From positions 224,001 to 288,000 of the forward strand of contig JAWARQ010000001.1 in the NCBI GenBank assembly GCA_038893355.1: a stretch of DNA of 64,000 bases, written 5' to 3'. Under the pieces are notes generated by a model. The model was not told the origin of the DNA and did no database searches. It saw nothing but the letters and a program-made list of their open reading frames with translations. The translations under genes were made by a program, and so were the position numbers. Each line of letters starts with the position of its first letter. Positions within the stretch are counted from its first letter, which is position 1. The stretch comes from Sulfolobaceae archaeon. GTDB lineage: Archaea > Thermoproteota > Thermoprotei_A > Sulfolobales > Sulfolobaceae. Shown here one piece after another: positions 11,603 through 12,977 of the stretch.

Positions 11603-12598
11603 TTATTTAGGCTTTCCCTTCTCTATAATTTTCCTTAATTCTTGCCCGACTTTCTCTTCTAAACTTTCGCTAACTTCCTTTAATCCTTCTATGACCTTCG
11701 GCATTCCTTTACTATATTCTTCAATCCACTCATTTGCAAATTCTCCAGATTTAATTCTTTGAAGGGCTTCTTCCATTCTTTTTCTAACATCTTCATTAAT
11801 AATCTTCTTACCGACAGTTAATCCCCCATATTTTGCAGTATCAGATACTGCTTTTAACATTCCAGTTAATCCCTTTTCATAAACTAAGTCTACTAACATC
11901 TTTAACTCGTTTATTGTCTCAAAATAAGCAACCTCTGGTTGATATCCTGCCTTTACTAAGGTTTCAAATGCAGCTTTCATTAGTTCCATTATACCTCCTA
12001 CCAATATAACTTGTTCGCCAAACAGATCAGTCTCTGTCTCCTCCTTAAATGTTGTCTCTATAACACCAGCCCTTGTAGCACCTATACCCTTTGCTATCGC
12101 TAATGCTTTTTCAAGTGCTTTTCCGCTTATATTCTGGTAAACTGCAACTAATGCTGGTACTCCTCCCCCTCTTATGAAATACTCTCTTACAGTGTGTCCA
12201 GGGCCCTTAGGGGCTATCATATAAACATCTGAAGTTTTTGGAGGTTCAATTAGCCTGAAATGAATATTAAATCCATGTGCAAATACAAGGTCAGCATTTT
12301 CTCTCATAAAGGGTAATACTTTTTCTCTATATATATAACGCTGTATCATATCTGGTAATAGAAATACTATTATCTCTGCATCTCTTACAGCCTCTTCAAT
12401 TTTTCTTGGCTTAAATCCTTCACTCTCAGCTAATTTCCAAGAGTTTCCTTCTCTATCTAATGCTACTATAACATTAAGTCCAGAGTCTCTAAGATTTAAT
12501 GCCCATGCTCTGCCTTGATTTCCATAACCTAGAATTACAATCTTCTTATTCTTTAATATACTTAAATCCGCGTCCTTATCAGTATAGATCTTTGCTAT
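11603..12598 (-). CDS. ilvC: Ketol-acid reductoisomerase; start most likely ATA at 12598 (alternative GTG 12607)
   Basis: [46 protein letters not shown] at 12608-12604. Confidence 0.97.
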
Positions 12599-12977
12599 AT
12601 TTCTCACCCCAGCTATACCCATTAATTTTAGAAAAAACTGGTACATAAATTACAATGTCATATTCTTTTGCATCTTTATCATTACCTTTTCTAATTTCAC
12701 CTAATTTCGGTGAAACTATATAGGTTTCTATTGCAGAAGTTTCAAGTATTTCTACTTTCTCTATATCAACGGTTTTGCTAAGGTTAAGTATAGCTATTCT
12801 TGTATTTTTATTCTCTTCCACACCTAAATAAACTTCATATAGACCTTCTTCATTAATCCTCCTTGCATTCATCCAATGAATATTAACCCAGAGTTTTCTG
12901 AAAGTTGCTATTATTCTTTCTAAGAACCCTGGATCTCTATAATAGCCTACTACTCTAACTACTTTTTCTTGGGTCAC
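12579..12977 (-). CDS. ACT-domain protein, likely acetolactate synthase regulatory subunit (crenarchaeal type)
   Basis: [12 protein letters not shown]-like motif; lies between ilvB and ilvC and overlaps both; SD GGTGA 6 nt before GTG. Confidence 0.75.

Follow-up and report, generated by a model that had tools for sequence, protein, structure and literature searches.

A candidate AUA start codon in ilvC and near-cognate start codons on conserved genes of Sulfolobaceae

Where does translation of ilvC begin in a Sulfolobaceae archaeon that carries an isoleucine codon at the place where a start codon is expected? The gene lies in the window analysed here, a stretch of 64,000 nucleotides (positions 224,001 to 288,000 of contig JAWARQ010000001.1, assembly GCA_038893355.1), for which a preliminary description proposed initiation at ATA. 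On the minus strand we found the arrangement reported there, a Shine-Dalgarno (SD)-like GGGGTGA followed by the spacer gaaat (12603-12599), ATA, and the codons GCA AAG ATC TAT ACT. The residues AKIYTDKD encoded after ATA are conserved, which agrees with the typical IlvC N-terminus recognised earlier, and the solved ketol-acid reductoisomerase (KARI) chains 5yeq and 4xdz begin with M-AKIY. The source assembly is AT-rich and reduced (1.40 Mb in 17 contigs, 84% complete, 32% G+C) and is the sole representative of its genus among the 47 Sulfolobaceae genomes compared. On balance, and judging from comparative sequence data, we lean towards translation of ilvC from ATA 12598.

The product of ilvC is a class I enzyme of about 330 amino acids, with a KARI_N domain (PF07991, 4.3e-70, residues 14-178) and a single KARI_C domain (PF01450, 1.6e-55, residues 184-325), and it matched the PDB entries 5yeq (E 5e-160) and 4xdz (4e-149). 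The genes for the large and small subunits of acetolactate synthase are located directly upstream on the same strand, as in a class I ilvC operon (Table 1). Across the junction the small-subunit frame reads TGG GGT GAG AAA TAT AGC and continues to its stop codon TGA (12581-12579), 20 nt into ilvC counting from ATA. GGGGTGA thus also codes for W-G-E of the overlapping small subunit, and it contains a GTG that is in frame with ilvC.

Table 1. Positions of the features discussed; numbers without a prefix refer to the window.
Feature	Position	Strand	Remarks
Acetolactate synthase large subunit, TPP enzyme	12955..14673	-	Upstream in the ilvC operon; Pfam
Acetolactate synthase small subunit, ACT domain	12579..12977	-	GTG start 6 nt past GGTGA
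ilvC, class I ketol-acid reductoisomerase	11603..12598	-	331 codons from ATA, plus stop
Stretch bounded by two in-frame ATGs	12620..12646	-	ATG 12646-12644 and ATG 12622-12620
GGGGTGA, SD-like	12604..12610	-	5 nt upstream of ATA; complementary to the 16S rRNA 3' end
GTG, rival ilvC start	12605..12607	-	In frame, 3 codons upstream of ATA; would yield MRNIAKIY
ATA, proposed near-cognate ilvC start	12596..12598	-	Slot is ATG, GTG, or TTG in 30/46 family orthologues
leuS	20763..23626	+	GGTGA 20763-20767, 6 nt, ATA 20774-20776; in-frame TGA (part of GGTGA) 2 codons upstream
FEN1	C5:97401 (L089)	-	ATA 6 nt past GGTGA
TBP	C5:29602 (L086)	+	ATT 6 nt past GGTGA
sucD	C7:15956 (L220)	-	ACG 6 nt past GGTGA
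mre11	C4:76433 (L085)	-	Proposed ATT start, source genome only
trpE	C1:113649 (L083)	+	Proposed ATA start, source genome only
Zinc alcohol dehydrogenase	C8:29031 (L092)	+	ATT
Zinc alcohol dehydrogenase	C12:7601 (L093)	-	ATT
Dual-specificity phosphatase	C3:54917 (L084)	-	ATT
ORF of 384 codons	C5:175489 (L221)	+	ACG
ileS	C1:180870 (L217)	+	TTA opens frame
ftsY	C1:37236 (L219)	+	TGT opens frame
ORF, presumably PIN-domain-like	C12:15745	-	Starts at the GTG within GGTGA

The 3' end of the 16S rRNA of the source genome is complementary to GGUGA and its flanks. Throughout the assembly, canonical starts after GGTGA peak at spacings of 5 nt (28/104 open frames) and 6 nt (37/69), and the 5 nt between GGGGTGA and the ilvC ATA fall within this genome-wide optimum. 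The genes put forward for comparison in the preliminary description, all of which we checked against Pfam, behave as stated: hisG (25383), pyrF (41127), and purD (53313) begin 5 nt past GGTGA, and purF (50749), carB (60151), and the ACT-domain small subunit (12977) begin 6 nt past it. Among frames of at least 100 codons that are opened by a noncanonical codon after GGTGA, ATH codons (ATA, ATT, or ATC) made up 12 of the 35 noncanonical codons at spacings of 5-7 nt versus 23 of 199 at control spacings (Fisher odds ratio 4.0, p 0.0015); the same class includes 48 canonical codons.

To place the ATA of ilvC among its orthologues, we surveyed the start regions in every family genome with an ilvC gene (46) and in six genomes from other families, taking the codon just before A/S-K-I-Y as the slot codon. 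In line with the earlier proposal, ATA sits where orthologues have their start codon, 5 nt past a full GGTGA. The slot carries GTG in 14 of the family genomes, TTG in 11, and ATG in five, and ATG or GTG in all six outgroup genomes. ATA is found in 11 family genomes, namely the source genome (genus g1, 1/1), all members of g4 (3/3) and g13 (6/6), and one of seven in g5. Three genomes have ACG, all of them in genus g8 (3/8), one has TTA, and one has GTA with a GTG sitting one codon upstream. In genus g8, closely related species differ only in ATG versus ACG at the slot, an exchange that is silent (TAT/TAC) in the small-subunit frame.

A stop codon separates the GTG position from the slot in 14 of the 30 canonical-slot genomes, and we therefore regard the slot as the ancestral ilvC start. 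Noncanonical slot codons also occur in metagenome loci: among 31 loci with at least 60% identity, which include no member of the source genome's own genus (top match 77% identical), four have ATA, two ACG, and one TTA. The ATA codon is thus conserved in relatives, in 11 of the 46 genomes and these four loci. On the ilvC gene tree, a quick tree only, the distribution of ATA requires three changes, of which at least two are forced by well-supported branches.

Further genes of the source genome carry a noncanonical codon at the SD-defined position, and in leuS, FEN1, TBP, Mre11, and TrpE there is no canonical codon in frame that could replace it. The first canonical codon of leuS, GTG 20807, lies 11 codons past ATA and would cut 11 conserved residues. 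Read by eye in 30 family loci, the LeuRS slot is ATT in 16, ATA in 12, and ATC in two; homology reaches the slot in 30/30, no canonical codon is conserved across the loci, and an in-frame TGA lies upstream in most of them (not tallied). FEN1 has ATA in 25 of 30 family loci, ATC in four, and ATT in one, never ATG, with an in-frame TGA upstream in 30/30, and ten other families of the order have ATG, GTG, or TTG at this position in 10/10. The TBP slot likewise holds an ATH codon in 30/30 family loci and never ATG, the in-frame TGA being present in not every locus (not tallied). SucD has ACG in 30/30 family loci, with an in-frame TGA upstream in 20/30; this ACG sits within the overlapping end of sucC, and the overlap may help to fix it.

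Loci of the FEN1 and LeuRS type leave no room for an earlier start, their frame being closed shortly before the slot by the TGA contained in GGTGA. The LeuRS and TBP loci of some genera show the layout of ilvC, with a spacing of 5 nt and the GTG of GGTGA in frame. For these two genes this GTG is ruled out, because the orthologues with 6-nt spacing carry the in-frame TGA.

The relatives of mre11 have a canonical codon at or next to the slot in 27/29 cases and ACG in the other two (genus g7), and those of trpE have a canonical codon at or next to the slot in at least 25/29. Canonical and ATH starts therefore toggle in unambiguous settings. Two zinc alcohol dehydrogenase genes and a dual-specificity phosphatase gene have ATT, and an ORF of 384 codons has ACG, 6 nt past GGTGA, in each case with an in-frame TGA upstream. 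Pfam domains begin 3-12 residues past the ATH codon in FEN1, TBP, Mre11, TrpE, the two alcohol dehydrogenases, and the phosphatase. Comparison of loci across the Sulfolobaceae shows near-cognate AUH and ACG codons serving as starts where no other start exists. The public gene call for FEN1 of the source genome is 305 amino acids versus 354, and NCBI Sulfolobaceae FEN1 proteins begin with MGVDL, ATA being read as Met; homology-based annotation thus already implies ATA-type starts.

Two more genes have a four-base arrangement at the SD-defined position. In ileS, TTA opens the frame 6 nt past GGTGA or GGTGG in 24 of 30 loci, inside an invariant ATTA, so that ATT lies one base upstream of TTA in a closed frame. 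One ileS locus has ACG, and five g13 loci have GTG without an SD. The start of ileS is either UUA or AUU with a one-base offset. In ftsY of the source genome and two other genera, TGT opens the frame 6 nt past GGTGA, and TTG or CTG lies one base upstream (TTGT or CTGT), a four-base oddity as in ileS. A TTA at the SD slot of KsgA was dropped as ambiguous, relatives starting about 12 codons further in, at ATG. A general rule for aminoacyl-tRNA synthetases was rejected as well, ValRS and the second LeuRS copy having canonical start options.

Since other genes of the family use ATH and ACG codons without a possible earlier start, the balance in ilvC shifts towards ATA. In such a start, GGGGUGA would pair with the 16S rRNA at its 3' end and set ATA, 5 nt downstream, into the P site by ordinary SD-directed initiation. 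The initiator Met-tRNA (anticodon CAU) would take AUA with a third-position mismatch, and the IlvC protein would read M-AKIYTDKD, as in its orthologues. The ATA would probably be a weak, SD-dependent start, and ribosomes still on the overlapping small-subunit gene may assist initiation. ilvC would then be one case of a family habit in which AUA, AUU, AUC, and ACG act as starts with a strong GGUGA 5-6 nt upstream. We infer three things here: the ribosome picks ATA over GTG in ilvC, IlvC begins with Met, and initiation at ATA is weak. Condo et al. reportedly found in 1999 that an internal cistron was no longer translated in S. solfataricus extracts once its SD had been mutated, which would favour the SD-served codon. 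The change to ATA in an AT-rich reduced genome may partly be drift, and both ATA and GTG may be used in ilvC.

In ilvC itself, canonical in-frame codons remain available upstream of ATA. The preliminary description pointed to the GTG inside the SD as the only nearby one and also named two in-frame ATGs further upstream, and both observations stand. A start at GTG 12607 would give MRNIAKIY, with ATA as an internal Ile codon left after the old start mutated, and we regard it as a serious possibility, albeit a doubtful one. Each of the 15 genomes whose slot codon is ATA, ACG, or TTA carries the GTG of GGTGA in frame and reads on to the slot without a stop, so that one rule would cover all of them, and the pattern is unbroken in the 31 metagenome loci, of which 7-8 have a noncanonical slot codon. 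However, the open frame from GTG to the slot holds in stop-free genera whatever the slot codon; it carries little weight and may reflect shared ancestry only. The need for an SD, together with the coding of W-G-E in the overlapping gene, accounts for the presence of GTG just as well.

The strongest point against initiation at ATA is the TTA allele, found in two assemblies. TTA is no near-cognate codon of AUG and can hardly initiate. The TTA lineage probably uses GTG for ilvC. GTG is also intrinsically a far better start codon than ATA, and one other ORF of the source genome, with a GTGA start-stop overlap, does begin at a GTG within GGTGA. We take this ORF, which overlaps the upstream stop by 4 nt, to be PIN-domain-like from its N-terminus. 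Against such a start in ilvC, no SD or GGTG-type motif lies upstream of GTG 12607, and GGTGA cannot act as the SD for a codon that it contains.

The set of slot codons can be read in two ways. A single transition turns a canonical start into each of ATA, ACG, and TTA, and mutation bias alone could yield all three. Yet replacement by GTA, which a like transition would produce from the most frequent state, GTG, did not turn up, and a slot freed from its role should drift, whereas ATA is kept in 6/6 g13 species amid variation at nearby positions that are silent in the small-subunit frame. In favour of GTG, aIF1 of S. solfataricus is reported, in the part of the source concerned, to discriminate against noncanonical start codons (PMC6237735). 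The public gene calls of the ATA, ACG, and TTA lineages all begin at GTG as well (MRNIAKIY in the source genome; MSRIAKIY and MSHIAKIY in proteins that NCBI names Metallosphaera ketol-acid reductoisomerase; MKCTSKIY and MKSTSKIY in the ACG lineage of S. solfataricus and S. islandicus; MINIAKIY and MRKLAKIY elsewhere), but these are software decisions, not data. The 46 genomes and 31 metagenome loci included no decisive natural variant, that is, a stop between GTG and ATA or a loss of GTG in an ATA lineage. Metatranscriptome reads on 12300-12900 numbered zero in two runs from the study that also provided run X4 (see below), about 3% of each run being sampled.

The preliminary description further suggested that an AUA start ties IlvC synthesis specifically to the supply of isoleucine or Ile-tRNA. 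An Ile codon indeed heads an enzyme of the Ile/Val/Leu pathway, and LeuRS likewise starts at Ile codons family-wide. Such starts are, however, also present on FEN1, TBP, Mre11, TrpE, and the alcohol dehydrogenases, and ilvC starts at ATG, GTG, or TTG in 30 of the 46 family genomes and in most genera. The tRNA set of the 84% complete genome is ordinary, a search for an initiator-like tRNA for AUA finding none among three CAU tRNAs and one Ile-GAU, and initiation by an elongator Ile-tRNA is, to our knowledge, without precedent. Sensing of isoleucine or Ile-tRNA through the ilvC AUA is thus unsupported and, in our estimation, very unlikely. Of the parallel drawn earlier with E. coli infC, the weak start behind a strong SD holds, and nothing beyond that.

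Initiation further upstream, at ATG 12622 or ATG 12646, appears very unlikely as well. Both codons are canonical and in frame, and a longest-frame ORF listing picks 12646, but neither is conserved or preceded by an SD-like motif, and both lie within the small-subunit coding sequence. In-frame stops occur there in most relatives, the open frame measuring 332-341 amino acids in 36/45 other family genomes versus 348 here, and the M-AKIY beginning of the solved KARI chains argues against upstream ATG starts. That ATA stands for an ATG misread in sequencing or assembly, or that ilvC is decaying in a reduced genome, might be suspected in a draft of 17 contigs with 84% completeness and low independent coverage, but can be practically discounted: the doubt raised earlier, that raw reads might show ATG at 12598, was dispelled by a contig from run X4 of another study (12584-12811, 0 differences, word depth 3.1), the slot holds Ile in a 91%-identical protein from another assembly and ATA in 10 other genomes, and the ilvC ORF is intact with full Pfam domains.

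With ATA as its start, ilvC alone would probably add a new case to a kind of start already known in bacteria. More interesting than this single gene is the habit of the whole family. We consider it fairly probable that Sulfolobaceae follow a relaxed, SD-led start rule, under which AUA, AUU, AUC, and ACG are regular starts on TBP, FEN1, LeuRS, SucD, and perhaps IleRS and FtsY (with the four-base ATTA and TTGT), are fixed by selection against reversion to AUG, and spread in AT-rich reduced genomes to further genes, including ilvC. If true, this would point to translational control, or to recognition of start sites by aIF1/aIF2, at a level that is undescribed in the archaeal literature and systematically missed by gene callers. 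A weak start would suggest that in four genera IlvC synthesis is held back compared with that of the acetolactate synthase subunits, and the choice of the ilvC start decides the true N-terminus of the protein.

The matter also bears on annotation and on the study of initiation. Prodigal, according to the relevant part of its description, considers ATG, GTG, and TTG starts only (PMC2848648), and callers of this type shorten proteins with near-cognate starts, such as FEN1, or lengthen them, such as IlvC when called from GTG. S. solfataricus and its kin serve studies of archaeal and eukaryote-like initiation, which consider AUG, GUG, and UUG only. The conserved AUH and ACG starts on TBP, FEN1, LeuRS, and SucD would be natural substrates for studying near-cognate acceptance by aIF1/aIF2 and the SD-anchored 30S subunit. 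In the literature outside subscription journals, our search found neither an account of AUH or ACG starts on cellular genes of Sulfolobales nor any Ribo-seq work on Sulfolobaceae.

In its reliance on an SD, here the GGUG(A) motif, for initiation on internal cistrons, the proposed ilvC start resembles textbook archaeal starts, as outlined in passages of a 2020 review of archaeal initiation (PMC7531240). It differs in the codon: the relevant passages of that review give AUG, GUG, and UUG as the only start codons and contain no AUH or ACG starts of cellular Sulfolobaceae genes (PMC7531240). A precedent in a Sulfolobales host system comes from the fusellovirus SSV10, for which CUG, AUU, and AUA starts are annotated for the ORFs C34, A49, and D60 in the section of the report concerned (PMC6080066). 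The AUU and AUA starts of SSV10 were, like ours, proposed from sequence, but they concern small viral ORFs and are annotations without comparative proof. Eukaryotes initiate at the near-cognate codons CUG, GUG, UUG, ACG, AUA, and AUU, as listed in the relevant part of one account (PMC3105428). The AUH and ACG codons of Sulfolobaceae are likewise one base off AUG, and eukaryotic and archaeal initiation factors are homologues. However, eukaryotic near-cognate starts need scanning and a Kozak context, whereas in Sulfolobaceae an SD located 5-6 nt upstream determines the codon.

The closest parallels are bacterial. In E. coli, infC and pcnB have AUU starts. Firmicutes have conserved AUA and AUU starts behind an extended SD, exemplified in the part of the report concerned by S. 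aureus infC (AUA), ccpN (AUA), cvfC1 (AUU), and citZ (AUA), and in the S. aureus reporters described there AUA and AUU starts yielded about 10% of the output of AUG, at most 30% (PMC13009471). As in Firmicutes and E. coli infC, the Sulfolobaceae starts combine an AUH codon at an SD-defined position with a strong SD and conservation across species. The bacterial examples operate with IF3, whereas the Sulfolobaceae machinery is archaeal (aIF1/aIF1A/aIF2). Unlike infC, ilvC has no evident autoregulatory loop, IlvC being an enzyme and not a translation factor, and unlike the bacterial cases it has a canonical in-frame GTG as competitor. In contrast to the bacterial cases, the habit of the Sulfolobaceae spans core genes (TBP, FEN1, LeuRS, and SucD) throughout the family and never returns to ATG.
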